Below are positions 2,004 through 59,478 of a stretch of 64,000 bases of DNA, piece after piece. Position 1 is the first letter of the stretch. Every line of letters begins with the position of its first letter. The notes under the pieces are model-generated. The model saw only the letters and a program-made list of their open reading frames with translations, ran no database searches and was not told the DNA's origin. The stretch is from the IMG/VR virus record IMGVR_UViG_3300045988_107970, positions 1 to 64,000 of that record. The stretch is one strand, 5' to 3'. The position numbers and the translations under genes are program-made. The DNA comes from a virus.

Positions 2004-2008
2004 AGCTA

Positions 2009-2036
2009 GGGGAACTCTATAGTTCCCCTTTTTTTT
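2009..2036 (+). terminator. intrinsic terminator
   Basis: GGGGAACT/AGTTCCCC stem, CTAT loop, T8 run. Confidence 0.85.
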
Positions 2037-2208
2037 GGAAAAAATTATGGAGATTTGATGGAAGTTTCATGGAGAAAATCCTAGACTGGAATATGGAGAA
2101 ACTGTGGAGCATTTGTGGAGATTTGACGCGCTGGAAAATTGCAAGCTGGAAAATACCGAAACGCGCTAAAATGGAGTGGTACGCGAAACAGACTGGAAAG
2201 GTGGAAAA

Positions 2209-2376
2209 ATGTTTCGGAAAATTGTAGACTGGATGCGCACACCCGAGGGCAAGGAATACGTAGCTGGAATTATTTTCGGAATGGTCGGAATAATTGCCGT
2301 GAGAACGTTTTGTTTCTTTGTGTGCTTGGCAACTGGATACCCTGCTAATCCTTGGAACATTTTGTTTTGGTTGTAA
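2209..2376 (+). CDS. small membrane protein (55 aa, one hydrophobic helix)
   Basis: ATG 2209 within ORF 2176..2376; hydrophobic core IIFGMVGIIAVRTFCFFVCLA; terminator follows. Confidence 0.5.
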   Translation: MFRKIVDWMRTPEGKEYVAGIIFGMVGIIAVRTFCFFVCLATGYPANPWNILFWL

Positions 2377-2380
2377 GATT

Positions 2381-2409
2381 AGAGCGGATTAAATATCCGC
2401 TCTTTTTTT
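2381..2409 (+). terminator. intrinsic terminator
   Basis: AGAGCGGAT/ATCCGCTCT stem followed by T run. Confidence 0.85.
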
Positions 2410-3832
2410 GTGGAAAAATGTTACTGGGATAATCGCATTACGGATAAACCACGTAAGCATTGCGGAAAAACTACCGAGTGCGGAAAAACTAAGGCGCTCA
2501 AATGCGTTTTAAGGCGTGGAAAAACGATAGCCCTTAGTCGGACAAGCGCGGAAAAAACTATACCCTTAAATCGCCTTACAGTGCCTTATACGGACAAATG
2601 CTATCGCGCTAGTCGGAAAAGATAGCGGAATATTTGAGACAAGCGCGGAAGATTATAGAGATTCTATGGTTGGAAAATCAACATGGAAAATACCGTGCTA
2701 TCGCATGGAAAATCTATTGACAGCCTATACGGAACTATATTATCATGTTATCTTTTGTGGAAAAATATTACGCAAGTTTACGGAAAAATGTTGCCTAACT
2801 GATAGCAATACGCCACGGAAAAAATGATACTAATACTAACTCATTATAATGTATATAATATTATATATGTATATATGTATACGGAAAAATCAACGCGCAA
2901 GCATTACGGAAAAATGCTACATACTTACTAGCATTTAAACGCTACCTAATCAGTCGGAAAATAATTACTACTAGTCTAGTCGGAATTAAATGTTACGGAA
3001 AAAATAACATATAAATTGTTGTCGGAATAATAACGTTACGGAAAAACTATCATATCGAAATGTTACGGAAAAACTAACGTTACCTCACGGAAAATATATA
3101 CAACATCATAAACATTATAATGAATATATACATCTGATACATTACATATATATATAATATGTTACTAGTCGGAAAATATATATACGTTATATACGTATGG
3201 AATATTACATATATCTAATACGTTATATACGTATATAACATTATGCTTAGTCGGAAAATTATAATTACTACTATATCAGTCGGAATATATCCATGATAAA
3301 AATCTATCACAGATAATAAATATCTATCGTGTGGAAAAATTATGTGCTGCGGAAAATCTATTGACGCTCACGGAAAAATCAACACGCAAGTGTTGCGTGA
3401 TTGTAGTAGCCGCACGGAAAATCTATGGTAAAGAACATACCACTTAGATACCAATTATTTATCATGGTTAGGGTACCTAAATATATATATCTAGCTGGAC
3501 AAATGCCGCACACGGCTTGATAAACGCATACCCTTAGTGCGTAGACGCGGCGCGGAAAATATGCCCTTAAATCGAAAGATAAAACGTTTTATCAACGATT
3601 GTAGGTTTGGAGCGTGCGCGGAAAAACTGATAAACAGATTAACGCTAACGCCCACACCGCGCGCCACGGAAAAAGTTCGCTAGCACAACACGGAATAAAG
3701 CACAAGCGCGGAAGAAAGATACACGCTATCAACACACCTACGGAAAAATCAAACGCGAGTACCACACGGAAGATTGAATTGCAATAGCTACGGAAAATCT
3801 GCATACAAAATACACACACTTTTTGTCTATGT

Positions 3833-3877
3833 TTAATTGTGTTGATACTGTGACGGAAAAGATTCTCGACCATATGG
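3833..3877 (+). promoter_or_regulatory. copy of the conserved early-region motif (TTAATTGTGT..TGTGA..GGAAAAGATTCTCGAC-CATATGG)
   Basis: Aligns by eye with copies at 4417, 4755, 6912, 7238, 9834 and 13562; 55 nt upstream of the ORF at 3934. Confidence 0.6.
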
Positions 3878-3933
3878 CGGCGCGTTTTGGTATCTTATAG
3901 ATACGGATAGACGCGAGCAGAAAGGGCGAGCAG

Positions 3934-4170
3934 ATGAACAAGTTTGAGAAAATCGTTCTTGCCAAAGTCGAGGATAGTATCGGTAGTTTTGAGAACAGCA
4001 TACAAGACGGATGGATTGACGAGGGCGCGTTTACGCGCGAGGGGTTATTTAATACCGTGCGCGGCGAGGTTGTTGCGGAATGTCCGCGCGAGGTTCGTTT
4101 TCTTGGCAACGCGCGGATTGACGAGATATGTTATCATGCGGTAGACAGTTTCGAGTTTCGCACTTGGTAA
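3934..4170 (+). CDS. hypothetical protein (78 aa)
   Basis: ORF track; AAGGG RBS; terminator follows. Confidence 0.6.
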   Translation: MNKFEKIVLAKVEDSIGSFENSIQDGWIDEGAFTREGLFNTVRGEVVAECPREVRFLGNARIDEICYHAVDSFEFRTW

Positions 4171-4174
4171 CTTG

Positions 4175-4201
4175 GCAAGGGCTTATGCCCTTGCTTTTTT
4201 G
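4175..4201 (+). terminator. intrinsic terminator
   Basis: GCAAGGGC/GCCCTTGC stem, T run. Confidence 0.85.
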
Positions 4202-4315
4202 TTTGCCGCTACAAAAAATAGACAGTCCTCTAGCTTAATAATAATAATAGGATAGGGCGATTTTTGTGTCAAGCGTCAATCTAAAATCTCCATACAATCT
4301 CCATAGATCCACAAA

Positions 4316-4417
4316 GTTCAATTTTGAACCACGAGTTCAATTTAAAATTGAACTAATCGAACTAATGCGCAACCTAAATTGAACTTTAAAATTGAACTTT
4401 TATATCTATCTTTGAAC
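4316..4417. repeat. cluster of ATTGAAC/GTTCAAT boxes (at least 7 copies in 100 bp)
   Basis: Inverted pairs at 4316-4329 and 4335-4353; direct AAATTGAACTTT at 4376-4387 and 4389-4400; TTGAAC at 4412-4417. Confidence 0.8.
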
Positions 4418-5362: not shown

Positions 5363-5670
5363 GCCTTTAAATGCTACTGATTGACTATCAATATAGGCAA
5401 CGGAATATAAGCCACTGAGAGCCGATTTAAGCCCTTATATTATCGAGCTGGATAAACTATACCCGATAGGCGTATAACGGCCCTTATATTCGATTCTGTG
5501 GGCTTATGGAGGTAAAAGCGTCTGGACTACCCTAGCGCATTTAACGGATGAACCAAAGCAACCAAAGCAAAGCAGGGCAACGGATAAAATAATATATGGA
5601 GAGAATGTGTAGGCGCTTATACCGTGATACTATTTAACCAACGGAAGGGACGCGAGAAAGGCGGCACAAA

Positions 5671-7717: not shown

Positions 7718-7924
7718 ATGGCAAAAATGCGGCAGTATACCTATCTTGAAATGACTAAAATCGTCAAGCGCAACGGGTATGAGTACGTTAGATGTGCTGG
7801 CGACCATTGTATATATAAACATGAAGATGGTAACGGTACTATTGTGCTAGCGAAAAAGAAACATATTAACCCATGTATTGCAAGGCGGCTTATCAAAGAG
7901 AACAATTTAATCGTTGACCTGTAA
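7718..7924 (+). CDS. hicA: HicA-like (YcfA family) mRNA interferase toxin homolog
   Basis: 68 aa. Pattern KIVKRNGYEYVRCAGDHCIYKHEDGNGTIVLAKKKHINPCIARRLIKENNL matches the HicA layout (G-[SD]-H-x-I-[YF]-x-H ... short lysine-rich tail). Confidence 0.55.
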   Translation: MAKMRQYTYLEMTKIVKRNGYEYVRCAGDHCIYKHEDGNGTIVLAKKKHINPCIARRLIKENNLIVDL

Positions 7925-8139: not shown

Positions 8140-8230
8140 CAAAATACTACGGAAGATTAACTATTAGATTAGATGGAAAATTATCCGCCATTTTTTATTT
8201 TCTTGTTTATACTGATACGGAAAAATCTTG
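8140..8230 (+). repeat. second mini-cluster of the GGAAAA-type repeat (3 copies)
   Basis: TACGGAAGATT, ATGGAAAATT and TACGGAAAAATC within 90 bp, same orientation as the main array. Confidence 0.7.
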
Positions 8231-8284
8231 CGTAAGCATATTTATCTATTTTGTATTATATCTATTTTGTTAGGAATGTATAAA

Positions 8285-8390
8285 TTTCCACAAAAAACGT
8301 GGACAACTCACCCTACTTTGGTATAGTTGTCCACAAAAAACGTGGACAAGTGAGCTACTTTTGAGAGTTTCCCACGCTTTTTGTGGACAA
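8285..8390. promoter_or_regulatory. three copies of a 20-nt operator-like unit CCAC-A6-CGTGG-ACAA, built from DnaA-box-like 9-mers (TTGTCCACA)
   Basis: Copies at 8287-8306 and 8330-8349 (the latter with an 8-bp inverted repeat TTGTCCAC/GTGGACAA), and 8372-8390 with an inverted core. Confidence 0.7.
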
Positions 8391-8454
8391 GTTAAAGATA
8401 TTCCACACTTTGATTATTATTTGTGGAATATATAACGAGACGGAATATATATTT

Positions 8455-9030
8455 ATGGAGAGAATATGGATCACTAGATTTAAACGCATCGGATTAAATG
8501 CCTTTAGTTATATGTGTGATATACTTTGGGCAAAGCAAAGCAAACGCAAGACGGAAAGGTTTCATATGTTTGTTGACGGTAACATTTGGGTGTCGGATTA
8601 TTCTGATGTTGACGAGCTTCGGAAAAAATGCAAGGAAGGTTATAGGTTTGTCGGGGACGTTGAGTATGATGTTCCTATTGTGAAGAATCAAAAGACGTGG
8701 TATCGCTTTAAGTCTACGGATGATAGTATCACTGGGTATCTTTATGTGACGGAGCATCGTATTAAAGACGTGTTCGACCTATTAAGGACTAACGTTATCG
8801 TTCACACGGAAGATAATAATACCTTTGTGTTCCATCCCTATGGTATGACAATCAATCGCAAAAAGACTATCGTGTACAAGCGTGATACCGTGGTGGAATA
8901 CTTTCCACAAAAGAATCAATACAAGGGGCTTAGTCCTTATGGTGCTGTGTCAAGCTATGTAAATGTGCATCGCTACCGTAGTATGCGTAATACCTTGATT
9001 AACCTTGGATATATCAGCGTGGAAAATTAG
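8455..9030 (+). CDS. hypothetical protein (start uncertain: 8383 GTG, 8455 ATG, or 8566 ATG with the best RBS)
   Basis: ORF track 8383..9030; the 5' end of the ORF overlaps the operator repeats, so a downstream start is likelier. Confidence 0.55.
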   Translation: MERIWITRFKRIGLNAFSYMCDILWAKQSKRKTERFHMFVDGNIWVSDYSDVDELRKKCKEGYRFVGDVEYDVPIVKNQKTWYRFKSTDDSITGYLYVTEHRIKDVFDLLRTNVIVHTEDNNTFVFHPYGMTINRKKTIVYKRDTVVEYFPQKNQYKGLSPYGAVSSYVNVHRYRSMRNTLINLGYISVEN

Positions 9031-9031
9031 T

Positions 9032-9081
9032 GAAAAAAGTTTTGAAAACTACTTGACAGCTACGCAGCAACTTATTACAAT
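9032..9081 (+). promoter_or_regulatory. consensus sigma70-type promoter with A-rich UP-like element
   Basis: GAAAAAAGTTTTGAAAAC; TTGACA 9053-9058; 17-nt spacer; TACAAT 9076-9081. Confidence 0.75.
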
Positions 9082-9087
9082 GTTTGG

Positions 9088-9233
9088 TACAACATAAATG
9101 ATACGGAACAAAAACGAACTAGCTTTTATGTTGCATACCGTCCTTTCTGGTGTTGGTATGAATGTGGTTGGGGTCTGATTGGCGGTTCTTTCAGGCGGAT
9201 TAGGGGAGCGCTTATGCGTTCCCCTTTTCTTTT
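9088..9233 (+). ncRNA. candidate small RNA (about 145 nt) or leaderless micro-ORF transcript
   Basis: Lies between a consensus promoter and a 9-bp-stem terminator (9203-9233). The only ORF is a 26-codon ATG ORF without an SD. Confidence 0.4.
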
Positions 9234-16663: not shown

Positions 16664-16873
16664 ATGTCAAATATAAAGGCAAATGTACAGAAAAATGAAC
16701 GCGCCATGCTTAATACGACAATAAACAAAGGCGTTTTAGATAGTTTTAAAGCCCATTGTAAAGGCGCTGGGATGCCTATGAACACGGTATTGGAGACGTT
16801 CATGGTACAGTTTGTATCGGGCGAGTTCGTGCTAAAGATAGGCAAAAGCAATAAGATTGATATTAAAGACTAG
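16664..16873 (+). CDS. ribbon-helix-helix protein, RelB/DinJ-antitoxin-like (paralog of 17627..17818)
   Basis: LNTTINKGVLDSFKAHCKGAGMPMNTVLETFMVQFVSGEF aligns with the paralog LNTTIDKDVKDAFSAYCKQVGFSMNTVLEILMRQFANGEF. Confidence 0.5.
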   Translation: MSNIKANVQKNERAMLNTTINKGVLDSFKAHCKGAGMPMNTVLETFMVQFVSGEFVLKIGKSNKIDIKD

Positions 16874-17626: not shown

Positions 17627-17818
17627 ATGGTGGAAAATAACAAGGTCGTACTCAATACAACCATTGACAAAGACGTTAAGGACGCTTTCAGCGCCTACTG
17701 CAAACAGGTTGGTTTCTCTATGAACACGGTGCTAGAGATTCTTATGCGACAATTTGCGAATGGCGAGTTTCGTATTAAGTTTGAAAAGAATAAGTTGGAT
17801 CTTGATTTAGAAGGATAA
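17627..17818 (+). CDS. ribbon-helix-helix protein, RelB/DinJ-antitoxin-like (paralog of 16664..16873)
   Basis: See paralog alignment; ATG 17627 sits 1 nt after the upstream stop. Confidence 0.5.
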   Translation: MVENNKVVLNTTIDKDVKDAFSAYCKQVGFSMNTVLEILMRQFANGEFRIKFEKNKLDLDLEG

Positions 17819-18793: not shown

Positions 18794-18979
18794 ATGGGAC
18801 TGTTTGGTCGGAAAAAAGACATTACCAACATGGTATTTGACTGGGATTTGTACTGGAAAGATATTGAGAATGGCGTTGACAACAAAATTATAGTCAAGAA
18901 GATGGAAAGTCTTGATTACTATGTGAGCAAGGCCGAACAGTCATACGGAAAAATTTTAGTAGCGGCATACGCAAAGTAA
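18794..18979 (+). CDS. hypothetical protein (61 aa)
   Basis: ATG 18794 after AAAGGTGAG. Confidence 0.5.
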   Translation: MGLFGRKKDITNMVFDWDLYWKDIENGVDNKIIVKKMESLDYYVSKAEQSYGKILVAAYAK

Positions 18980-18986
18980 TTGATAT

Positions 18987-19020
18987 AAGGCGGTTGTTTT
19001 TTGACGGCCGCCTTTGTTTA
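18987..19020 (+). terminator. intrinsic terminator
   Basis: AAGGCGG...CCGCCTT stem, T-rich tail. Confidence 0.65.
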
Positions 19021-19081
19021 TTATAATCTTAGATATTGAAGAGTGTTGGAGTGGTAAAACAAAACTAAGAGAAGGGAGCGC

Positions 19082-20023
19082 TTGTCTTTGCGGAAAAATT
19101 TTGATGACTTTATACAGACATTTGATTCCGATAACACGGCAAAGGTGGCTAAATCATTATGTGTTATAGGCGAATATGATTATTCAAATTGCACACCTGT
19201 TGATTTACAGAATATTATATTAGGAATGAATCCTAATAGCCCAAAGGCTATAACGACTATTATATATATCCTTGGTTTGTATGCAAAATATCTTGGCAAT
19301 AAAGATATGGAATATATGTTGAATGACTTGGATCGGAATATTCTTTGGTCATTAGCCAAACCAAATGCTTCTAAGAAATTTATTTCCAATGCGCAGTTTG
19401 AAAAGATATACCATGATATAGGAATGTATGAGGACTATAACGGATTTTATATACAGACACTATTTAGAAGTCTATATGAAGGTATCTATAACGATGATAT
19501 GAGCGTTGTGAAGAACCTTAGAGCGGAAAATATATGGTGGGATGGAACAACGTTAAAGCCCGATAATGGCGAGCCGTATGATATATCTATATCGAAAAAA
19601 TTAGCCGATGATTTGATTAAGCTGAGCAAAATTGATATATGGGAAAGACGGAACAGGTATGGGACATGCAAGATACCAATAGTCGGATTGCATGAAGACA
19701 GCTGTTTCAAGGTGGAGAATCGCAAAGGCAGTTCGGAATATTCCTATAGGTTCAGTTACTATAGGCTATTGCGGAATATATCTAAGAACTATGTTGGATA
19801 TAATCTGTTGCCGCTACAGATATATGTGAGCGGAATAATGCACAGGATAACATTGGAATTAGACAAGTGTGGAATAAATATCAAAGATGCCTTTGCGGAC
19901 AATAACAAGGATAGAAAAGTGAATGGAATAATTTCAGATGAATTGAAGCGCAGCATGTGCGATACGCCAGTGCGGAACTTCAGGGAAATGGTCAAAGGGC
20001 ATATAGATATTTTCTCTCCTTAG
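19082..20023 (+). CDS. hypothetical protein (313 aa), AT-rich; N-terminus vaguely integrase-SAM-like, no catalytic motifs seen
   Basis: ORF track; GAGAAGGGAG RBS, TTG start. Confidence 0.6.
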   Translation: MSLRKNFDDFIQTFDSDNTAKVAKSLCVIGEYDYSNCTPVDLQNIILGMNPNSPKAITTIIYILGLYAKYLGNKDMEYMLNDLDRNILWSLAKPNASKKFISNAQFEKIYHDIGMYEDYNGFYIQTLFRSLYEGIYNDDMSVVKNLRAENIWWDGTTLKPDNGEPYDISISKKLADDLIKLSKIDIWERRNRYGTCKIPIVGLHEDSCFKVENRKGSSEYSYRFSYYRLLRNISKNYVGYNLLPLQIYVSGIMHRITLELDKCGINIKDAFADNNKDRKVNGIISDELKRSMCDTPVRNFREMVKGHIDIFSP

Positions 20024-20138
20024 ATGGAATATTTTATATGATGCAAATGATATGGTTTGGTGCTAACATCTTAGTGTTGTGAAGTATTGCTATATTCTAA
20101 ATATTTCACAACACACTTCTTGAGAGGAGCATTTGCGC

Positions 20139-20579: not shown

Positions 20580-21806
20580 TGTCAGAAAGAGACGCGGACA
20601 AATCGCAGATCAATCTGATGAGCACCTTGAGAAAAGAAGATGGAAAAAAGTTCAAAAAAGTTCTTGCAACTGATAAAGTTAGATGCTATAATATCTGACA
20701 CAGAGAAACGGAAGTTTCCAGTTGCACCTTGATATTTGCATAAAGTATCAGCGTTGAGAAATCAACGCGAAGGATTGTTTCAACCATGTGTATTCCAAAT
20801 TCCATTGGGTCATGGACGTGTTCAAAGAGTTCCACTATAGAGGATACCCTATAGGTAGGCTTTGCCTGATGCAGGTAACTGACATCTTTAGAAGGGCAGG
20901 AGAGATGGAAAATCTCAACTGAGGGCAGACACGGTGCTGTGATGAAACGCAAGAAAATGGTATCGCTAACTGGTCGCTATCGCAATAGATATGAGGTACG
21001 CACTTCATTGAACCAAGTAGAGGATAGTGTGGCAGCTATGCCAATCGCTTGGAGTGCCACAAGATAGTTGTCCAATTGATGCTGGTAATCAGCTATAAGA
21101 CCAGACGTGAGTACGAGTAGCCCAAATTTGGATAGTATAGAAGATTAATATGCTGAATGGTGGGTGAAAGTTGTTGGTAGCCAATCCAGCCATAGATTGA
21201 CGTAAAGTCGGGATGGAAAGATACGAGGTCGCTCCTTGTGTCTCAGCTCCATTTCCTATGTGACCGAATTACCACTACGTTTTATGAAGGTAAGGCGAAG
21301 GCCTGAGACAATCTTTCGCGTTGGTTTGCTTGACCGACAAAGCGAGGTTCGATTCTGTATTAGGTTTTTGGTTGCTTTGCTGATACAGATGGTGCGGTAC
21401 GATTCCGCAGACGGAAAATACAATGGCTCCTTTCTGTTTTGGTTTCATGGTTGCTCCAATTTAACTCAAACGTATTTTTCGTTAACGCTTAGTCCCAAGG
21501 TTTACGATGGAGATAGCTACCTGACAAGTCTTGGGCGCATGGTGGCGGCGTAATGTCACCCCTTGTCTTAACGGAGGAAGCGGACTGTTAAGCGTACACC
21601 GTTGCGTAAAATCGGTAGCGTTGGAAGGTCTGCCAGCGCGGACGGTATTTAAAATAAGTGACCCCTCTGGTAGTTGGCGAGGACTTTAGTAAGCTACCAC
21701 CGTCTATGGAATATATATTTGCCCTTTACCTTGATTGCGGGCGTTCCTTCAACGAAGCAGGCACCTTGTTGATTAAGTATATATTCCATAGACGGTAATG
21801 TGAACT
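20580..21806 (+). ncRNA. candidate large structured non-coding RNA (about 1.2 kb; family unassigned)
   Basis: Only one RBS-less 105-aa + strand ORF. Visibly higher GC than flanks. Many hairpins, including GNRA-capped stems (20705-20718, 20751-20768) and an 18-bp perfect stem (21700-21717/21778-21795). Two promoters upstream, tRNAs downstream. Confidence 0.5.
20643..20692 (+). promoter_or_regulatory. sigma70 promoter P2 with extended -10 and A-rich UP-like element
   Basis: GAAAAAAGTTCAAAAAAG; TTGCAA 20664-20669; 17-nt spacer; TGcTATAAT (TATAAT 20687-20692). Confidence 0.8.
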
Positions 21807-21892
21807 GGCGGTGTGGCGAAATAGGTATACGCTATGCTTTAATGGGCAAAACAGGTAGCTCCTGTATGCAAGTTCGACTCTTGCCACTGCCA
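21807..21892 (+). tRNA. tRNA-like element, class II shape, aberrant anticodon arm (no assignable anticodon)
   Basis: Acceptor GGCGGTG/CACTGCC; T arm GCAAG-TTCGACT-CTTGC; variable arm ACAGG-TAGCT-CCTGT. The anticodon region TATGCTTTAATGGGCAAA does not form a 5-bp stem with a 7-nt loop. Confidence 0.4.
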
Positions 21893-21948
21893 CGGAACAT
21901 TACCGTCTATTTTGAAATGGTAATACATAGTGGAAAATTGTACGTAGT

Positions 21949-22021
21949 GGGAGATTAGTTAATGTTAGTATAACACCCTGCTTATAACGGGGCGTGACAG
22001 GGGCAGCACCTGTATCTCCTA
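21949..22021 (+). tRNA. tRNA-Ile(UAU)-like, canonical cloverleaf lengths but non-canonical D and T loops
   Basis: Acceptor GGGAGAT/ATCTCCT; D stem GTTA/TAAC; anticodon stem CCCTG/CGGGG; loop CTTATAA. T loop is GGCAGCA instead of TTCRANN, and the D loop has no GG. Confidence 0.55.
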
Positions 22022-22056
22022 CTACCTATAATCTAAATTGTGTATTACCATTATAT

Positions 22057-22138
22057 GCCGCAGTAATCCTTTAAAGACGAGGGTTGGACTGTAAATCCAA
22101 TGTCTATGACTGGCTAGGAGCGTTACCTAGATGCGGCA
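22057..22138 (+). tRNA. tRNA-Tyr(GUA)-like with long variable arm, irregular D arm and non-canonical T loop
   Basis: Anticodon arm TTGGA-CTGTAAA-TCCAA; T arm CTAGG-AGCGTTA-CCTAG; acceptor GCCGCAG/ATGCGGC with a G-A mismatch. Confidence 0.5.
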
Positions 22139-22189
22139 CCTGTATCTATTATTACACACAATATAAGTTGTGTATTACCTTAATATAAT

Positions 22190-22271
22190 GTCCGATTGGT
22201 GGAATTGGCAGACACGACAGACTCAAAATCTGTTGCCGAAAGGCGTAACGGTTCGACCCCGTTATCGGACA
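22190..22271 (+). tRNA. tRNA-Leu(CAA)
   Basis: Acceptor GTCCGAT/ATCGGAC; D loop with GG; anticodon arm ACAGA-CTCAAAA-TCTGT; variable arm GCC-GAAA-GGC; T arm AACGG-TTCGACC-CCGTT. Confidence 0.85.
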
Positions 22272-22321
22272 CCCAGATTACTTAGATATAATGTTGTTTA
22301 CATTATATCTGTAATATAAAC

Positions 22322-22396
22322 GGGCGCGTGGACTAATGGATAAGTCAACTGGCCTCTACCCAGTTCATCATGCGGGTTCGACTCCTGCCGCGTCCG
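22322..22396 (+). tRNA. tRNA-Arg(UCU)-like (C at position 33, 7-nt variable region)
   Basis: Acceptor GGGCGCG/CGCGTCC; D arm GACT-AATGGATA-AGTC; anticodon arm ACTGG-CCTCTAC-CCAGT; T arm GCGGG-TTCGACT-CCTGC. Confidence 0.7.
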
Positions 22397-22507
22397 CCTA
22401 GTTGTAAACGCAGAATGGCTAGTCAGAAAGTAGCTAGTCTGATGAAAGGTGAAACCTACACACCAAGCCATTCTGCTTACATATATTGTAGGGGATTGTA
22501 GGTCTGT

Positions 22508-22942
22508 ATGACTGAATCAAAAACAAATAAAGGAATATCAACAGAACTTAAGTTTTTTAGTTATTGCTTGGATAATGATATTGTTGTTTGTCAGCCAGTA
22601 ACTACAGATACACCGTATGATTGTATTTTTGAAGGAAAATCTGGACGCCTTTATAAAGCACAATTAAAAACTGGATATAGACCATCCAAGTTAAAAGACC
22701 AGAATGTTTTTGCGTATAGTACAAGAACAAGTCATTTTTCAAAAGACGGTGTTTCTTCTCATGGATATACAAAAGGACAGATTGATGGTTTTATTACTTA
22801 TTTTAATGAATTGCCAGATATGTTTTTTTATATTCCAATTGAATTAAGTAAAAAAGGTTCAATGAGGATTTACTTTGGAGACAAGCCTACTGCTCAATCA
22901 AATTATTATAAAGATTTTTTATTGGATTTTTCTAAATTATAG
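22508..22942 (+). CDS. PD-(D/E)XK endonuclease, I-Ssp6803I-like (PDDEXK_5-type) putative homing endonuclease
   Basis: 144 aa. GISTELKFFSYCLDNDIVVCQPVTTDTPYDCIF...LYKAQLKT fits the E...PxD...(E/Q)xK layout. AT-rich, embedded between tRNA genes. Confidence 0.55.
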   Translation: MTESKTNKGISTELKFFSYCLDNDIVVCQPVTTDTPYDCIFEGKSGRLYKAQLKTGYRPSKLKDQNVFAYSTRTSHFSKDGVSSHGYTKGQIDGFITYFNELPDMFFYIPIELSKKGSMRIYFGDKPTAQSNYYKDFLLDFSKL

Positions 22943-22955
22943 ATATAATATATAT

Positions 22956-23038
22956 GGAAACATGGCGTAATGGTAGCGCAGCACCCTGCTAAGGTGTCCT
23001 AGCGTAAGCTAGTCTGAGTTCGATTCTCAGTGTTTCCG
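22956..23038 (+). tRNA. tRNA-Ser(GCU)
   Basis: Acceptor GGAAACA/TGTTTCC; anticodon loop CTGCTAA; variable arm CTAGC-GTA-GCTAG; T arm CTGAG-TTCGATT-CTCAG. Confidence 0.85.
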
Positions 23039-23250
23039 CCTTGTATATTTATGCCCCTATTGGCAGTGGCTTTGAAGCTGTGCCGAAAACAGCTTTTGCG
23101 GTAGAATAGGCAACGCCGCATAGCTATTCGGGAGGATAGCGAGCCTTCTTGCTAGGAGATAAGCAAGTGCTTTCACGGAGTAATTGGTGAGCTGAAACAC
23201 CGTAAAAACAGATCCTCTGGATGTGCCGTGAATACGCATCCTGTTTTTTT
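23039..23250 (+). promoter_or_regulatory. structured 5' leader ending in an intrinsic terminator (attenuator or riboswitch candidate, class unassigned)
   Basis: Hairpins at 23075-23095, 23123-23140, 23148-23167 and 23175-23203. Terminator GGATGTG/CGCATCC plus T7 at 23219-23250, 30 nt before the SPFH gene. Confidence 0.45.
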
Positions 23251-25455: not shown

Positions 25456-25830
25456 ATGGAAATGCCATTTAAGGAACAGACAGTAGAGAGCGATGATTTC
25501 TACTATAATTTTTATGGTTGTCTTGATATTGAGATATCAGATGCGGATTATGAGTGCGATCATGTTGGTGATTGTTCATTGGAAGATTTCGATGACAATT
25601 TGCCAGACGCTTTAATTGATTATGATTTTGATGAACGAGTTCTCGGTAACATGATGGTGAGTAAGTTTGTCGGAAGTTTAAGCGACAATGAAAAATATAT
25701 CCTATCATGTCTATTAAATGGGATGACACATCAAGAGATTAGTGATACAATGGATTGTACGAGACAGAATGTCACTAGGACTGTGGAAAGACTCGGCACA
25801 AAAGCTATTGATTTTCTGTCTTGCAATTAA
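25456..25830 (+). CDS. sigma-70 region-4-like / HTH transcription regulator
   Basis: LSDNEKYILSCLLNGMTHQEISDTMDCTRQNVTRTVERLGTKAIDFL. Confidence 0.5.
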   Translation: MEMPFKEQTVESDDFYYNFYGCLDIEISDADYECDHVGDCSLEDFDDNLPDALIDYDFDERVLGNMMVSKFVGSLSDNEKYILSCLLNGMTHQEISDTMDCTRQNVTRTVERLGTKAIDFLSCN

Positions 25831-26503: not shown

Positions 26504-27220
26504 GTGAGAGACGAAATAGACCATAGCGGTGAAGCATATGGTAGATTAACATTACTTAGTAAGAATGGAAATAGACAAGAATACTGGTGTTCTTGTAGTT
26601 GTGGAAGATATACAAAAGATAATCCAAAGCTCGTAAGATATCAGCGGATGGTAAATGGAAGTATAAAGTCTTGTGGGTGCTATAATCGAGAACGGTCTAG
26701 CAGGATGATATCTGAATATAATAAATCATTAATACGTGGAAACACGTATGATTTATCTGGTGAATATGGAATTGGATATACGTCTAATGGAGAAGAGTTT
26801 TATTTTGACTTAGAAGATTACGACAAAATTAAAGATTATACGTGGTTTATTAATAGCGGATATGTACGAACAAAGAGAGACGGACGTGTAATAAAATTAC
26901 ATAAATTACTTTGTGAAGGGAAGGAGATAGACCATTTTAATAGAAATAAATTAGACAATAGAAAAAGTAATTTAAGACCCATTACGCATAAGCAAAATAT
27001 GTTAAATAGAAGTATTGCCGTCAATAATACTTCTGGCGTAACTGGTGTGTCGTTTAATAAATCACACAATAAATGGTATGCAGGCATATCAGAGAATGGT
27101 AATCGACACAACCTTGGTTATTTCGATAACTTTGACGATGCCATTGCAGCACGCAAGGCGGCAGAAGAAAAATATTTTGGTGGGTATAATTATAATAACA
27201 ACGTTAAAGGAGTTGCATAG
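26504..27220 (+). CDS. HNH homing endonuclease with C-terminal AP2 DNA-binding domain
   Basis: EIDHFNRNKLDNRKSNLR (HNH); SGVTGVSFNKSHNKWYAGI...LGYFDNFDDAIAARKAAEEKYFG (AP2); AT-rich. Confidence 0.8.
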   Translation: MRDEIDHSGEAYGRLTLLSKNGNRQEYWCSCSCGRYTKDNPKLVRYQRMVNGSIKSCGCYNRERSSRMISEYNKSLIRGNTYDLSGEYGIGYTSNGEEFYFDLEDYDKIKDYTWFINSGYVRTKRDGRVIKLHKLLCEGKEIDHFNRNKLDNRKSNLRPITHKQNMLNRSIAVNNTSGVTGVSFNKSHNKWYAGISENGNRHNLGYFDNFDDAIAARKAAEEKYFGGYNYNNNVKGVA

Positions 27221-44660: not shown

Positions 44661-46685
44661 GTGAGCAATGGTATTAACGTTTTAAATCTATGCGATGGTA
44701 TTTCGTGTGGCAAGGTCGCTCTTGACCGCGCTGGCATCAAGGTGAATAAGTATTTTTCAAGTGAGATTGACGAGAATGCCATTGCTATTTCTGAGAAGAA
44801 TCACGATGGTATTATTCGTCTTGGTGATATTACTAAGTGGCGTGAATGGGATTTGCCGCATATCGACTTGGTTTTGTCAGGCACGTCTTGTTTCCCAGCT
44901 GGTGCGCTTGTGCTACGTGAAGATGGTTTTGTTCCAATTGAAGAGATTAAAGTTGGAGACATGGTAATGACGCACAAGGGTCGTTTACGCCGTGTACTTG
45001 CAACTGGTTCAAAGCTTTCTGAAACAATCATGCTTAAAGGTCAGGGTTCTGTTGGAATCGAATGTACTCCAAATCATCCGTTTTATAGTGTGCATAAGCA
45101 ATGGCCGCATACAGCTGGAAACCCGAGCAATAAGTCAATTGTTTCTGAACCTGAGTGGGTTGAAGCAAAGGACATGAAAAGCAAGTTTTGGCTTAATGTG
45201 TGCAATGTAGAAGAGCCAACTGAAGTTCCTCAATTTGATGAAGCACAATTTAATGTTAGTGATTGTGGACATATTAAAGATTTCCAAATGACTAGTGCGT
45301 TTTTCTACTTTGTTGGTAGATGGCTTGGAGACGGATGGGCTAATGTTCACAAAAGAAAGAATCGCGTTCATTCAAATTTAAAACGAGTATATGTGTGTTG
45401 TTCACACGATGAAGAAGAGTACCTTGAAAAGAAATTGAGTGAAACTGGTTTATATTTTAGTAGAACCGACAACGGGTCAACTATGAGATTTACATGTTCT
45501 TCTACTCAGCTATATGACTGGATTATTGGCAATTTCGGAGTTCATGCAGATGGCAAGAACATCCCGTATTGGTGCCTTGGTATGCCAGTAGAATTTCGTA
45601 AGGCGATGTTTGAAGGATATATTGATGCAGACGGTACCAATAGAGACAATGGAGTTAGATCGAATTCTATTAATAGAGGATTAACTGTTGGAATGAAGCT
45701 TATTGCTGGTTCTCTTGGGATGGCATTAAGTACATATAAATTTAACACAAAAGAAAATGGTATGATTGAAGGTAGGATTGTAAATCAAAAACCTCTTTAT
45801 GAACAATCGTATTATCATGATTCTCGTAGTGCAATGTTTCTTGATACTGGTTGGTTTGGATGCGTAAGAAGCGTGAAGCCGTGTCGTGATACTGCTATGG
45901 TATACAATCTAGAGGTTGAAGAAGATAATTCATATACTGTAGACGGCATTGCTGTACACAATTGTCAAGGATTCTCCCGTGCTGGTATGATGCTTAATTT
46001 CAAGGATGAGCGCAGTAAACTATTTTTTGAATTCGTTGATATTCTTAATGACATTAAGACAAAGAATCCAGATGTCTTGTTTCTATTTGAGAATGTCAAG
46101 ATGAAAGATGTGTGGAAAGATATTATCACCGATAAGCTTGGCGTTGAGCCTATTGAGATTAACAGTAAACTTATGAGCGCACAAAATCGTTGGCGTACAT
46201 ATTGGACTAATATCCCCAATGTTGAAAAGCCAAAGGACAAGGGTATTAAGCTGCTTGATATTCTTGAAGACAATCCCGATGTTGAATTGGTTGAGCATAA
46301 GGGAATCATGTTCGATTCATACTTTCCAGAGAATGCTGTTGCCATTGTTAATCGAGTTGATGGCGAGCTACGTATCAATCAAGCAACTAAGAAGGGTTAT
46401 ATTGTAGCGCATAATGGTGATGGCGTTAATCTATCATTCCCGACTAGCAAGACTCGGCGTGGTCGTGTGATTAAGCAGAAGTCATCTACTCTTGATTGTG
46501 CCTGCGATGCATCTGTGTATTACGACAATACGATTAGACGTTTGACTTGCACTGAGCTAGAGCGCCTTCAAACGCTGCCTGATGGGTATACAGAAGGTTG
46601 GGTTAGGAGTAACAGGGTCAAGGCGATCGGCAATGGCTGGACTGTTGACGTAATTGCATGGATCCTTAGTTTTATGAAGCAGTAA
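44661..46685 (+). CDS. DNA (cytosine-5) methyltransferase interrupted by an intein
   Basis: Motif I LNLCDGISCG; motif IV (S)CQGFS split by the intein; FLFENV; AQNRWR; AIGNGWTV. Confidence 0.85.
   Translation: MSNGINVLNLCDGISCGKVALDRAGIKVNKYFSSEIDENAIAISEKNHDGIIRLGDITKWREWDLPHIDLVLSGTSCFPAGALVLREDGFVPIEEIKVGDMVMTHKGRLRRVLATGSKLSETIMLKGQGSVGIECTPNHPFYSVHKQWPHTAGNPSNKSIVSEPEWVEAKDMKSKFWLNVCNVEEPTEVPQFDEAQFNVSDCGHIKDFQMTSAFFYFVGRWLGDGWANVHKRKNRVHSNLKRVYVCCSHDEEEYLEKKLSETGLYFSRTDNGSTMRFTCSSTQLYDWIIGNFGVHADGKNIPYWCLGMPVEFRKAMFEGYIDADGTNRDNGVRSNSINRGLTVGMKLIAGSLGMALSTYKFNTKENGMIEGRIVNQKPLYEQSYYHDSRSAMFLDTGWFGCVRSVKPCRDTAMVYNLEVEEDNSYTVDGIAVHNCQGFSRAGMMLNFKDERSKLFFEFVDILNDIKTKNPDVLFLFENVKMKDVWKDIITDKLGVEPIEINSKLMSAQNRWRTYWTNIPNVEKPKDKGIKLLDILEDNPDVELVEHKGIMFDSYFPENAVAIVNRVDGELRINQATKKGYIVAHNGDGVNLSFPTSKTRRGRVIKQKSSTLDCACDASVYYDNTIRRLTCTELERLQTLPDGYTEGWVRSNRVKAIGNGWTVDVIAWILSFMKQ
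44889..45962 (+). mobile_element. intein (358 aa) with LAGLIDADG homing-endonuclease domain
   Basis: Starts CFPAGALVLREDGFVPIEEIKVGDMV and ends YTVDGIAVHN, followed by +1 Cys. LAGLIDADG blocks FVGRWLGDGWA and FEGYIDADGT. Confidence 0.85.
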
Positions 46686-49344: not shown

Positions 49345-50121
49345 ATGCAGAAGAGTTGTAAGTATTGCGGAAAGAAGTTTGAGCCTAAAAAAGGCCATAA
49401 TAATCAAATGTATTGCTGTAAATCATGTTCGGTAAAAGATAGGCACGTAGAAGATATTGGTCTTTTTAGAGAAGAAATTGATGATTACATTAAAAAATAC
49501 GTATTAGGATTAATAATTACAGATGGATGCTTGTCAAAGAATGGCGAAAGAATTTTTATATGTATTTCATTAAAAGATTTTAAAATGATAGAACGGATTA
49601 GAGATTTGGTATGTCCAAACAAAAAGGTATATAAAGACGGTAATAACTATCAAGTAAAGTGGAGAAATGAAAATGATGTTAAATATCTTAATGACATAGG
49701 TATACATGAGAGAAAAACATTTGATGTTGTATTGCCGATGTTTAATGAAAACATGTGGCATTTAATCAGGGGTATTTTCGATGGTGATGGATGTGTTTAT
49801 TACAGTACAACGTTTGATAAAAAGATGAATAAGGAATATACATATACATATATTACTTTTACTACTGCAAGTGAAAAATTTGCTTATCAATTAAATAAAT
49901 TTTTAAATCAAAATAATATTGCGTCAAAAATTTATATTGATAAAAGAAATTCTGACAGAAAGAATTTAACGTTTTATATAAAAATATTAAAAAAAGAAAG
50001 TGTATTATTGTTTAGAAATCTCATTTATCAAGATTGTAATAATTGGTATCTAGAGAGAAAGTACAATAAATTTTATAATAAATCACCAAAGAGTATTGAA
50101 AGCAGTGATGTTTGTGCTTAA
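49345..50121 (+). CDS. free-standing LAGLIDADG homing endonuclease with N-terminal zinc ribbon
   Basis: LGLIITDGCLS and IRGIFDGDGCVY; very AT-rich; 3' end overlaps the polymerase gene. Confidence 0.75.
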   Translation: MQKSCKYCGKKFEPKKGHNNQMYCCKSCSVKDRHVEDIGLFREEIDDYIKKYVLGLIITDGCLSKNGERIFICISLKDFKMIERIRDLVCPNKKVYKDGNNYQVKWRNENDVKYLNDIGIHERKTFDVVLPMFNENMWHLIRGIFDGDGCVYYSTTFDKKMNKEYTYTYITFTTASEKFAYQLNKFLNQNNIASKIYIDKRNSDRKNLTFYIKILKKESVLLFRNLIYQDCNNWYLERKYNKFYNKSPKSIESSDVCA

Positions 50122-58501: not shown

Positions 58502-59478
58502 CAAAATTAAAAGAATCCAATACAGGCTACAAATCAAAACGGTTAAAATTCACGGGAAACCTAAACAATTAATATTGCATGGCAACCGTGAGCCAAGCTT
58601 GTTTACAATAGACTGTCCAATGATAAATCGAAGGGAGGTAATATGTATAAGATTAATGATGTTAAGACTTGTGAAGACCATAACATAGGAACTGTTTATA
58701 TGAATGACAAGCCATATTATGTATGCAACGTTTGTGGGAAAATGTCTTTCCAAAAGGTATCGTCTAATAAGAAAGTATGGTGTACAAAACATTATAAGCA
58801 GTTTAAAAAATATGGACATGTATTAGAAAATAACCCAAGAACAATTTCTGATAGAAACGAGATAAGGGTTGACGGAGACATTGCATATATAGATTTATAT
58901 GATAAGAATTGCAATGTTGTAGCAACTGCTATGGTTGATGCGGAAGATGTTCCAAAGGTAAAAGACATTAAGTGGAAACTTTCTGGCTCTGGTTACGCAA
59001 TGAACACACCAAAGTTTAAAGGTGGAAACATTCATATGTCGAGAGTTATTCTTGACACCGACCAGTTTGTAGACCATATTAATCACAATACGTTAGACAA
59101 TAGGAAGTGCAATCTTAGAGTAGTAACAAAGCCTCAGAATCAAATGAATGCAAACTATAAGGGTGTTGCAAAAACCAAAAATGGGAAATTTTACGCACAC
59201 ATTAAACTAAATGGGAAACTATTTAATCTTGGTGAGTATGTGTTTGAAGAAGAAGCTTTGTTCGCAAGATGGTATGCGGAAACTTTACTATTCAAAGAGC
59301 ATCGTTATCCGAAAGAAAAACCTGTAATTCTATTGGACAGGGAATTGCAGATTAAAGAATATGTAAACAAGAAGGTGCAGAGACTATAATAATCGGCGTT
59401 GCTCAACCAAAATAATGGAGAGAACGTAAGGCATAGTCCACACCCCTAATAAATATCGGGAAACCGAGGGTACTATGG
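58502..59478 (+). mobile_element. group I intron in nrdD carrying an HNH-AP2 ORF
   Basis: 5' exon ends in U (GGT) and the intron ends in G. P4 pairing CACGG 58551-58555 / CCGTG 58586-58590. R-like AATAGACTGTCC (58607-58618) and S-like AAGGCATAGTCC (59428-59439) form P7 GACT/AGTC. Confidence 0.8.
58643..59389 (+). CDS. intron-encoded HNH homing endonuclease with AP2 domain
   Basis: VDHINHNTLDNRKCNLR; YKGVAKTKNGKFYAHIKLNGKLFNLGEYVFEEEALFARWY; GGGAGG RBS. Confidence 0.8.
   Translation: MYKINDVKTCEDHNIGTVYMNDKPYYVCNVCGKMSFQKVSSNKKVWCTKHYKQFKKYGHVLENNPRTISDRNEIRVDGDIAYIDLYDKNCNVVATAMVDAEDVPKVKDIKWKLSGSGYAMNTPKFKGGNIHMSRVILDTDQFVDHINHNTLDNRKCNLRVVTKPQNQMNANYKGVAKTKNGKFYAHIKLNGKLFNLGEYVFEEEALFARWYAETLLFKEHRYPKEKPVILLDRELQIKEYVNKKVQRL

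Follow-up and report, generated by a model that had tools for sequence, protein, structure and literature searches.

The locus

The first 64,000 nucleotides of the virus record IMGVR_UViG_3300045988_107970, hereafter called the window, are part of a ~130-kb phage genome and contain, at positions 2034-3870, an interval filled with short repeats that share one orientation. These repeats are tentatively interpreted here as operator-like DNA sites for a phage regulatory protein. Genes of the window encode a DnaE-type polymerase, a DnaB-like helicase, a RecD/Dda-like helicase, NrdD and an RNA ligase. In relatives, a minus-strand gene whose product is 47% identical to the YonO RNA polymerase (RNAP) of SPβ lies directly upstream of the array, and the divergent late/early layout agrees with that of SPβ, with which the YonO RNAP and the DnaE polymerase are also shared. 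No such array is present next to yonO in SPβ. Relatives of the RNAP (56-71% identity) are located in genomes and metagenome-assembled genomes of Clostridia and Lachnospiraceae, among them Lachnospiraceae isolates such as Lientehia hominis NSJ-141, which makes a Clostridia bacterium of the gut the probable host. Among GenBank phages the array has no nucleotide match, near or distant, and there is no close cultured relative.

A co-oriented array of 12-nt sites

The plus strand of the interval contains 36 exact copies of GGAAAA and 54 of the core GGAA, together with no TTTTCC and no TTCC (n=0 for both), in agreement with a first-pass annotation of the window that had counted about 36 and none by eye. 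In 1000 dinucleotide-preserving shuffles of the interval, GGAAAA occurs 1.78±1.31 times (at most 6) and TTTTCC 0.13 times, and the enrichment claimed in that annotation thus goes beyond local composition. Half of the 74 copies of GGAAAA in the window fall inside these 1.8 kb. The trinucleotide GGA occurs 69 times on the plus strand and is preceded by C or T in 67 cases; among the 54 cores, 36 have a C before GG, 17 have a T, one has an A and none has a G.

When 231 distinct 50-nt site contexts from five lineages are pooled, the information in the sequence logo runs from position -2 to +9. The consensus is asymmetric and 12 nt long, (not A)(not C)-Y-G-G-A-A-a-A-W-(not G)-t. The short core first described is therefore real, but the conserved site extends to ~12 nt rather than 6-7 nt. 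Spacing in the main part of the array is irregular, as had been noted, and ranges from 12 to 138 bp with a median of 28.5 bp. Gaps shorter than 12 bp are absent from the main array of the window (0 versus ~5 expected, P=0.003; P 0.002-0.02 in relatives). Measured from centre to centre, neighbouring sites are never closer than 12 bp in the window, and in four relatives the minimum is 11-13 bp. The 12-nt span of information and the 12-bp exclusion zone look like a protein footprint. Helical phasing was tested for in the main array and is absent, and no partner element at a fixed distance, such as the -10 or -35 of an alternative sigma factor, is found there. The longer sub-families are present as announced (GTTACGGAAAAA, TAGTCGGAA, CACGGAAA and GCGCGGAA). 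The array is no assembly artefact, since it is recovered in seven further loci from ENA, Logan and IMG/VR; the locus L124, a 100% match to the window, is counted apart from these.

Anatomy of the interval and its flanks

What had been taken for one array consists of confirmed repeats, but these form two distinct sub-arrays, a 5′ sub-array of TGGAR boxes (2036-2208) and an irregular main array of YGGAAWA sites (Table 1). The terminator at the left border has a conservation of 0.93 in a five-way alignment. The window has 13 TGGAR boxes and relatives have 15-20, the prevailing spacings being 11 or 22 bp; in L122 this sub-array is expanded. Its boxes are of one type with those that occur in pairs at the early promoters described below, and it is probably the promoter/operator region of the 55-amino-acid open reading frame (ORF) that follows. 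Homologues of this small ORF (57-84% identity) accompany the TGGAR sub-array everywhere, including the relative L176, and the small membrane ORF with its own terminator reported in the annotation corresponds to it.

Table 1. Features of the repeat interval, its flanks and the two further site clusters, in window coordinates
Feature	Position	Strand	Remarks
Intrinsic terminator of the upstream variable gene (1770-2003)	2008-2029	+	9-pair stem, then T-run; left array border
5′ sub-array of TGGAR boxes (TGGAGA, TGGAAG, TGGAAA)	2036-2208	+	Mostly 11-bp spacing
Small ORF, 55 aa, one hydrophobic segment	2209-2376	+	Embedded between the two sub-arrays
Intrinsic terminator behind the 55-aa ORF	2381-2403	+	
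Main array, 39-41 co-oriented YGGAAWA sites	2410-3870	+	Irregular spacing
Sigma-A-type promoter inside the array, TTGACA-18-TATCAT	2717-2746	+	11/12 consensus positions
Second AT-rich block, 14% GC	2830-2880		
AT-rich centre, 20% GC	3095-3250		Two copies of ACGTTATATACGTAT, at 3184 and 3220
Early promoter of gene 3934-4170 with upstream boxes	3826-3900	+	Repeat families D2, D8; conserved blocks
78-aa gene of no known family, first of the early genes behind the array	3934-4170	+	Terminator 4174-4195
Minus-strand sigma-A-type promoter	4272 to 4244	-	Promoter scan, 11/12 positions
Inverted triplet of TGGAGA-type boxes, aatCTCCATacaatCTCCATagatCCACAaag	4285-4320	-	Upstream of the 4272-4244 promoter
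Second site cluster, 10 sites	8148-9233	+	PWM (position weight matrix) scan; around DnaA-box-like palindromes (8290-8400) and inside gene 8455-9030
Third site cluster, 10 sites	18807-20034	+	PWM scan

The main array has little coding capacity: no ORF of at least 60 amino acids lies in 2626-3591, as the annotation stated, and the repeat-derived ORF 2410-2625 that it mentioned exists. On the plus strand, no terminator is predicted between 2403 and 4174. The sigma-A-type promoter inside the array has a -35 element conserved in five lineages and a -10 that reads TATCAT, TATCGT or TATTGT; if active, it would transcribe the right two-thirds of the array as the leader of gene 3934-4170. An AT-rich centre (25-28% GC) is found in all array-bearing relatives, and the near-palindromic AT-rich repeat described earlier does occur twice in that of the window. 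At the right border, the last array copy (3854) adjoins a -35-like ATTCTCGAC and an extended -10 (TGGTATCTT), consistent with the earlier remark that this copy merges with the early-gene motif (GGAAAAGATTCTCGAC at 3855). The 78-amino-acid gene is not an obligatory partner of the array, because L146, L147, L148 and L152 have the array without the gene. It was considered as the array binder and rejected, since arrays exist without it.

Each early gene forms a monocistronic unit that has a terminator and a promoter of distinctive structure. This promoter has paired TGKAGA boxes 11 bp apart (TGKAGA-N5-TGKAGN); 14 nt separate the second box from an extended -10 (TGnTAnnAT) downstream of it, so that this box takes the -35 position. 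Such pairs occur on the plus strand at 5597, 5983, 6917, 7243, 9247, 9816/9827 and 10983. A second class of early promoters carries an additional third unit, ATTCTCGAC. The architecture suggests factor-dependent promoters, either activated or repressed. At the predicted minus-strand promoter behind the array the TGGAGA boxes are inverted, and the element is therefore read on DNA, with its orientation tied to the promoter.

Several further observations concern the immediate surroundings. The predicted minus-strand promoter 4272-4244 would drive an antisense RNA across gene 3934-4170 into the array, and a minus-strand terminator-like hairpin is present at 3399-3383. Beside this promoter, the stretch 4320-4400 contains GTTCAA/TTGAAC palindromes and direct repeats of AATTGAAC. 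On the other side, GC content is 48% in positions 1-2003 versus ~39% elsewhere, and four or five small orphan genes are located there, in place of which close relatives have unrelated genes (48-99% identity); these positions form an accessory block of hypervariable content that adjoins the array on its upstream side.

Conservation and variation in relatives

Relatives were gathered by lookup of the 78-amino-acid protein in ENA and in Logan contigs, and by scans of IMG/VR. Independent metagenome assemblies provide at least five lineages in which the array occurs, at the same place and in the same orientation, with 78-90% identity. The densest 2 kb of their arrays contain 43-49 YGGAAWA sites and 0-2 inverse motifs. 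Between the window and its closest IMG/VR relative, GGAA cores differ at 4.5% of positions versus 13.8% for the spacers (P=6e-5), and the core thus appears, from this comparison, to be under purifying selection. Changes at position -1 are mostly from C to T or from T to C. About 35 of the 54 cores remain YGGA in all four other lineages, mostly at the same position. Array units are gained and lost between lineages, and the flanking upstream genes are mosaic (48-99% identity).

An IMG/VR scan anchored on the RNAP uncovered a large family, in which RNAP identity ranges from 97% down to 46%. True arrays are restricted to a close clade with RNAPs at least 94% identical. In L201, base-by-base inspection showed that the enrichment in GGAAAA reflects the purine-rich composition of coding sequences and ribosome-binding sites, with no array, and L164, L166 and L171 have the same diffuse profile. 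An IMG/VR pattern scan with three CGGAAAA motifs returned mostly chance single matches and one true relative.

The retention of the array by relatives has one exception inside the clade. L176 (RNAP 97% identical) retains the TGGAR sub-array, the small ORF and the terminator, but has three YGGAAAA copies only and lacks the main array, the AT-rich centre and the two following genes. The main array is therefore dispensable.

A sister lineage, L155/L290 (RNAP 95% identical), has a near-palindromic, operator-like motif, TCGTTAACAA, which fills each of the gaps between a terminator and a promoter along 6.5 kb of its early region. Its copies, 48 forward and 4 reverse, have a modal spacing of 30-31 bp and are interleaved with runs of CGGAAAA. 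They form eight clusters, one per early intergenic gap (L290 1230-7681, L155; contig IMGVR_UViG_3300045988_091023). The spacers between them are strongly A/C-rich and G-poor, and three cassette terminators that were inspected in this lineage are each followed by one or two reversed copies. In IMG/VR, arrays of this type were found in the contigs _091023 and _109861 (L279/L280) only.

In four of the five lineages (L121, L122, L123 and L131), an insertion of ~900 bp, absent from the window, separates the array from the 78-amino-acid gene (for example at ~9100-9990 in L131). It contains extra motif copies and an extra small gene, as well as a segment of ~150 nt that looks structured, ends with a terminator and shows changes between lineages that appear compensatory by eye; this segment may be a small RNA or a riboswitch-like element.

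Sites outside the array

With a 12-nt PWM derived from the arrays, 88 matches are obtained on the plus strand of the window versus 8 on the minus strand. Forty of the plus-strand matches are in the array, and 44 of the 48 others fall in the first 25 kb. The 32 intergenic gaps between 4.2 and 25 kb contain 20 plus-strand sites versus 1.6±1.1 in shuffled gaps (at most 5), with 2 on the minus strand; the 20 are spread over 13 of these gaps. The 21 intergenic gaps between 25 and 64 kb contain no PWM site. The array sites thus belong to a wider set that covers the early region.

Dispersed sites are found in untranscribed spacers between terminators and promoters, in promoter spacers and in 5′ and 3′ untranslated regions. 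Examples of the first two kinds of location are the sites at 5399, 9860 and 11012, and of the untranslated regions those at 9102, 10795, 16541 and 24466. The site at 9102 belongs to a unit at 9053-9225 (+) that has a consensus promoter (TTGACA-17-TACAAT, 9053-9081), a terminator (9202-9225) and ~140 nt with no convincing ORF, and that may encode a small RNA.

Two further clusters stand out. The second one starts with the three additional copies that the annotation had placed near 8140-8230 and which are found at 8148, 8172 and 8216; it extends into gene 8455-9030, encoding a protein called p191, where 3 sites are present versus 0.85 expected (P=0.03), the second-highest density of any gene. 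The third cluster is split between gene 18794-18979 (2 sites) and gene 19088-20023 (7 sites), with one more site overlapping the 3′ end of the latter (20023-20034). Gene 19088-20023 has the highest site density of the window genes. Its seven sites are all in the sense orientation, with none antisense, versus 2.4±1.2 in synonymous-codon permutations (P=0.0005), and they occur in all three reading frames. Homologues with 95-99% identity have 7-11 sites, and those with 37-69% identity, from array-less phages, 0-1. This codon-independent enrichment within a gene, together with that in the early gaps, implies that the motif itself is under selection.

A candidate binding protein

Gene 19088-20023 (+) encodes a protein of 311 amino acids and is preceded by a gene for an Xer-like recombinase and a small gene. 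At the sequence level, the protein has no match in Pfam, NCBIfam or the PDB, and neither phmmer nor a profile search matches it with MrpR or SroF. It has 559 homologues, 26 of which were used to build an AlphaFold2 model (predicted local distance difference test, pLDDT, 89.3; predicted template modelling score, pTM, 0.77). In a Foldseek comparison of the model with the PDB, the best matches are MrpR (8a0a, E=5e-9), DNA-bound SroF (9rd5, template modelling score, TM, 0.67) and YopR (8bpz/8bj6), followed at lower ranks by Cre, Tn1549 integrase, Xer and lambda integrase (TM 0.3-0.4; 0.33-0.40 for Cre and Xer). The C-terminus (...VKGHIDIFSP) ends five residues past the GH motif and lacks the catalytic tyrosine. 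As modelled, the protein best matches an integrase-fold, catalytically dead protein of the MrpR/SroF type, and it is the prime candidate for binding the array sites.

MrpR is the master repressor of SPβ and binds a repeated 15-bp element at ~10 promoters (PMC10516654). SroF is a monomer that encircles DNA at an asymmetric 26-bp A-tract box (10.1101/2025.11.27.690993). The 311-amino-acid protein resembles both in its predicted fold and in the missing catalytic tyrosine, but is ~12-14% identical to them in the structural alignment. The distribution of sites is different as well: in SPβ, SPBRE is present as ~10 single sites with no array, whereas the window contains ~90 sites, half of them in one block.

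Operator-like sites as the preferred interpretation

The array is read here as a set of operator-like DNA sites for a phage regulatory protein, similar to stoperators and serving as a polar roadblock and/or as a repressor reservoir, a tentative proposal to which we assign a probability of about 0.45. That the repeats are DNA-binding sites is argued by the asymmetric 12-nt site, the exclusion zone, the single orientation and the selection on the core, and likewise by the early-gap enrichment, the motif of the sister lineage and the cluster inside the MrpR/SroF-like gene. We infer that the sites are read on DNA, that they are bound by the 311-amino-acid protein and that binding blocks transcription or buffers the level of the repressor. 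Among the ideas put forward in the first-pass annotation, whose interpretation is partly supported as a whole, that of a landing pad for a DNA-binding protein comes closest to the evidence (the 12-nt asymmetric unit, the 12-bp exclusion, the early-gap sites and the sister motif), but its additional suggestion of a genome end that enters the cell first is unsupported because the assemblies break at different points.

In cluster A mycobacteriophages, a monomeric repressor silences lytic genes from 13-bp asymmetric sites, as described for L5 gp71 and for TipsytheTRex (PMC9283540). These stoperators are located at promoters and in short intergenic gaps, their orientation tracks transcription, and repression is lost when a site is reversed (PMC9283540). 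By analogy, a sequence-specific phage regulator would dock on the ~50 co-oriented ~12-bp sites of the array and, as at cluster A stoperators, the bound repressor would stop both initiation and elongation of transcription. The array could then be a multi-site polar roadblock or insulator ahead of the early region, a proposal based on its location between the terminators of the accessory block and the first early promoter. It could also provide a local reservoir or sink of the regulator and thereby sharpen the switching of early genes.

The resemblance to stoperators lies in a 12-nt asymmetric site in one orientation, in the many copies and in their presence in promoter spacers and early gaps. 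Unlike here, where ~50 sites are packed into 1.8 kb and further clusters exist, L5 sites are single and dispersed (~20-36 per genome). The candidate protein has an integrase fold, whereas gp71 combines a helix-turn-helix (HTH) with a stoperator domain, and no gp71-like protein is recognised; the host phylum is also different. The array may thus be said to work like a stoperator system, by analogy, rather than being filed as a member.

Other clusters of sites offer partial parallels. The datA locus of E. coli and incA of P1 are site clusters proposed to buffer a DNA-binding regulator, datA with five DnaA boxes and incA with replicon-borne iterons of 19 bp. Along with the regions bound by AbrB, they share with the array the many sites and a proposed role in buffering or concentrating a regulator. 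The array sites differ from those of datA in that they are not DnaA boxes, and a unidirectional block of 50 sites in the early region of a phage is seen in none of the three systems. The SRL/SRR repeats of T7 and the first-step-transfer repeats of T5 are irregular, co-oriented and non-coding, lie near the start of the early region of virulent phages and have a function that was long unclear. In contrast to the array, they are at fixed genome ends, while the present assemblies are permuted and have no defined ends; their motifs are unrelated, the array is far larger, and copies dispersed over early gaps are a feature of the array only. Partition centromeres of the parC/tubC type consist of phased tandem repeats (10-12 bp) to which a small adaptor protein binds, beside a motor gene (ParM, TubZ or ParA). 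In comparison with these, the 5′ sub-array has 11-bp phased boxes and RHH-like proteins are present; the main array is unphased, and no ParA, ParM or TubZ is found within the 64-kb window, about half of the genome. Literature searches for GGAAAA repeats, decoy arrays and phage CsrA sponges retrieved no description of the array or of the phage clade. The system is best classed as a repressor-site system in a clustered form that has no known precedent.

Several points weigh against this interpretation. All window genes are on the plus strand, and a transcription-linked orientation of YGGAAWA is consequently inseparable from a strand-linked one, which makes the orientation argument weak; inversion is seen only for the related TGGAGA box. 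What ties the motif to the 311-amino-acid protein is circumstantial. L176, which is devoid of the main array, has a 98% identical protein. The footprint of SroF is 26 bp and some array sites are 12-20 bp apart, so that simultaneous full occupancy by such a protein would be impossible, and the site is unlike the published SroF box, CAGTAATTTTATTTTTATTCTTAATG. Stoperators are dispersed single sites and, to our knowledge, no system packs ~50 of them in a non-coding block; given an architecture with no precedent, the function of the block is still a guess. The conserved sigma-A-like promoter in the array makes a role at the RNA level conceivable. Finally, the window encodes other candidate binders, namely two ribbon-helix-helix (RHH) proteins, a GerE/sigma-region-4-like HTH protein and p191.

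Alternative explanations

The array could be a DNA landing pad for a host factor, such as an AbrB-type nucleoid-associated protein or transition-state regulator, or for another phage protein (RHH, GerE-type HTH or p191), and would then be a decoy that draws this factor off its host or phage targets. This alternative is unlikely, but it is better placed than those discussed after it. AbrB of B. subtilis recognizes bipartite TGGNA motifs that have a spacer of 4-5 bp, in any orientation, and also occupies thousands of weak single TGGNA sites, for which a role in concentrating the protein has been suggested (PMC3738160). TGGAA fits this motif. However, 36 of the 54 cores are CGGAA and the promoter boxes are TGGAG/TGTAG, neither of which fits TGGNA; TGGAA accounts for 17 of the 54 cores. 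The phased boxes are TGGAG with a 6-bp spacer, and the single orientation of the array is unlike the AbrB regions, where sites occur in all orientations. No protein with a SpoVT/AbrB domain was found among the ~70 window ORFs scanned. As for phage proteins, genes for RHH-like proteins lie at 16664-16873 and 17627-17818 of the window, and one for a GerE-like HTH protein at 25456-25830. RHH proteins typically bind tandem direct repeats and would suit the 11-bp TGGAR sub-array. Gene 8455-9030 is second in site density, and the TCGTTAACAA lineage has an additional paralogue of p191, 36% identical, among its arrays, but the AlphaFold2 model of p191 is unusable (pLDDT 49). The intragenic enrichment, moreover, is specific to the MrpR-like gene, and a decoy for a host factor predicts none.

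The two RHH proteins just mentioned are small RelB/DinJ-like paralogues, encoded just upstream of recombinase/repressor-like genes. The GerE-like protein (+ strand, 124 amino acids) has an acidic N-terminal half and a C-terminal HTH of the GerE/LuxR type, similar to sigma region 4, and is possibly a promoter-specificity or appropriator-type factor.

A variant that keeps the integrase-fold repressor as the binder would make the array a cis-encoded DNA sponge that sets the level of free repressor and tunes the threshold between lysis and lysogeny; it might also titrate the repressor of a related resident prophage at superinfection. We regard this as rather improbable. If true, the array could serve as an anti-immunity or induction weapon, and swaps between CGGAAAA and TCGTTAACAA would mark immunity groups.

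A role at the RNA level, in which a long GGA-rich leader or non-coding RNA made from the promoter at 2717 or by read-through sequesters CsrA or another RNA-binding protein, seems less probable again. That other protein, from the phage or the host, would recognize the motif in early mRNAs too, among them the one of the repressor-like gene. It would account for the strict strand specificity, and it is in line with the conserved sigma-A-type promoter and with a plus-strand terminator that comes first at 4174, with the dispersed sites in untranslated regions and the sense-strand sites in gene 19088-20023, and with a predicted pairing of GGA cores in the putative transcript of 0.50 versus 0.75 for other G residues. 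As in CsrB/RsmZ, many GGA would be found on one strand of a possibly transcribed non-coding stretch. In the CsrA consensus, RUACARGGAUGU, ACA and GGA are invariant and GGA is presented in hairpin loops (PMC4347634). None of the 69 GGA of the interval fits ACA-R-GGA, the preceding pyrimidine (67/69) takes the place of the purine, GGAU occurs in 5/69, and AAA is found instead of UGU after GGA. Presentation in hairpin loops is not observed either: GGA is in loops flanked by stems of at least 4 bp in 9 of 41 cases versus 6.6±2.2 after permutation of the flanks (P~0.2). For either strand the folding z-score is ~-0.7, and a comparison with Rfam gives no match at E≤5. The CsrA sponge of the first-pass annotation is thus not supported. 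Sponge RNAs are 100-400 nt long, and the array stretch measures 1.4-1.8 kb. Furthermore, stretches that follow a terminator and precede a promoter harbour the left third of the array as well as several dispersed sites, the near-palindromic motif of the sister lineage points to double-stranded DNA, and the related TGGAGA boxes behave like promoter elements.

The array could also be a functionless by-product of local duplication or slippage of promoter-derived boxes in a recombination-prone mosaic region. The 17-30-nt sub-family units do indicate local duplication, units come and go between lineages next to mosaic genes, and one relative has no main array. This explanation is nevertheless very unlikely, given that cores are three times better conserved than spacers, that ~50 copies keep one orientation in at least five lineages with 0-2 inverse motifs, that the 12-bp exclusion zone exists and that enrichment in the gene and in early gaps is codon-independent.

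An origin of replication made of iterons and an AT-rich unwinding element has a slim chance. Direct repeats of the same orientation flank blocks of 14-20% GC near the point of late/early divergence, and three copies are exact relaxed DnaA boxes, TGTGGAAAA. Yet the sites are 12 nt long, irregular and unphased, in place of regularly spaced iterons of ~17-22 bp, and the DnaA box (TTWTNCACA / TGTGNAWAA) is exact in those 3 of 53 sites and has at least two mismatches in 44 of 53. Enrichment of the diagnostic T and G at positions 1-2 of the box is not seen (P=0.16 and 0.30). Among the window ORFs scanned, a Rep or DnaA-like initiator was not recognised and there is no initiator gene adjacent to the array, L176 does without the main array and the AT-rich centre, and the same sites are scattered over 20 kb and within a gene. 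The iteron origin proposed in the annotation is therefore not retained, and a better candidate is a 1-kb region of 24% GC beside DnaA-box-like palindromes (L122 3320-4350).

These palindromes, TTGTCCAC-N6/7-GTGGACAA (DnaA-box-like, TGTGGACAA), cluster as an inverted module at 8290-8400 of the window and at 3320-3500 of L122. One module lies upstream of gene 8455-9030 and the other, in relatives, by a minus-strand gene of 279 amino acids beside the YonO-like RNAP. The palindrome clusters are better candidates than the array for an origin or a main-switch operator.

Least probable of all is a polar signal for a DNA-tracking machine (Chi-like for AddAB, translocase-orienting or pac), for although strand polarity is total, the inverse motif is avoided (TTCC n=0) and the region syntenic with the SPβ pac site next to yonO is within a few kb, the main array is dispensable in L176, the sister lineage swaps and interleaves motifs where a host-specified Chi is not expected to be so variable, dispersed sites keep to early intergenic gaps and are not spread genome-wide, and the pac region would by SPβ synteny be the AT-rich gap upstream of the array. 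Of the polar DNA signal first imagined, an orientation-dependent roadblock is still possible, but the motif swap and the restriction to early gaps speak against translocation or packaging.

Other features of the window

A full-length ROOL RNA (RF03087, 290 bits) is found at 20760-21323 (+), followed at 21807-23040 (+) by four tRNA genes, one with an undetermined anticodon. Gene 7718-7924 is HicA-toxin-like (PF07927, E=9.5e-9) and has no recognised HicB beside it. The ORF at 44661-46685 (+), 674 amino acids long, matches DNA methyltransferase families at both ends, and its middle (~residues 70-440) matches an insert known in NrdD-like and helicase PHROGs and may be an intein or a homing-element insertion. 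The window also has HNH-AP2 (26504-27220), HNH (58643-59389) and LAGLIDADG (49345-50121) genes.

Biological significance

Whatever its binder, the array is among the most extreme strand-specific motif clusters in phage genomes and needs an explanation. If the interpretation as operator-like sites is true, the stoperator idea would reach beyond actinobacteriophages to large SPβ-like phages of gut Clostridia, and would be joined to the recently described integrase-fold repressors. The 50-site unidirectional block that heads the early region would be a new architectural element, and a natural case for studying how clusters of sites buffer or insulate regulators. It would also give a testable handle on the control of lysis and lysogeny and on immunity specificity in abundant uncultured phages of the human gut.

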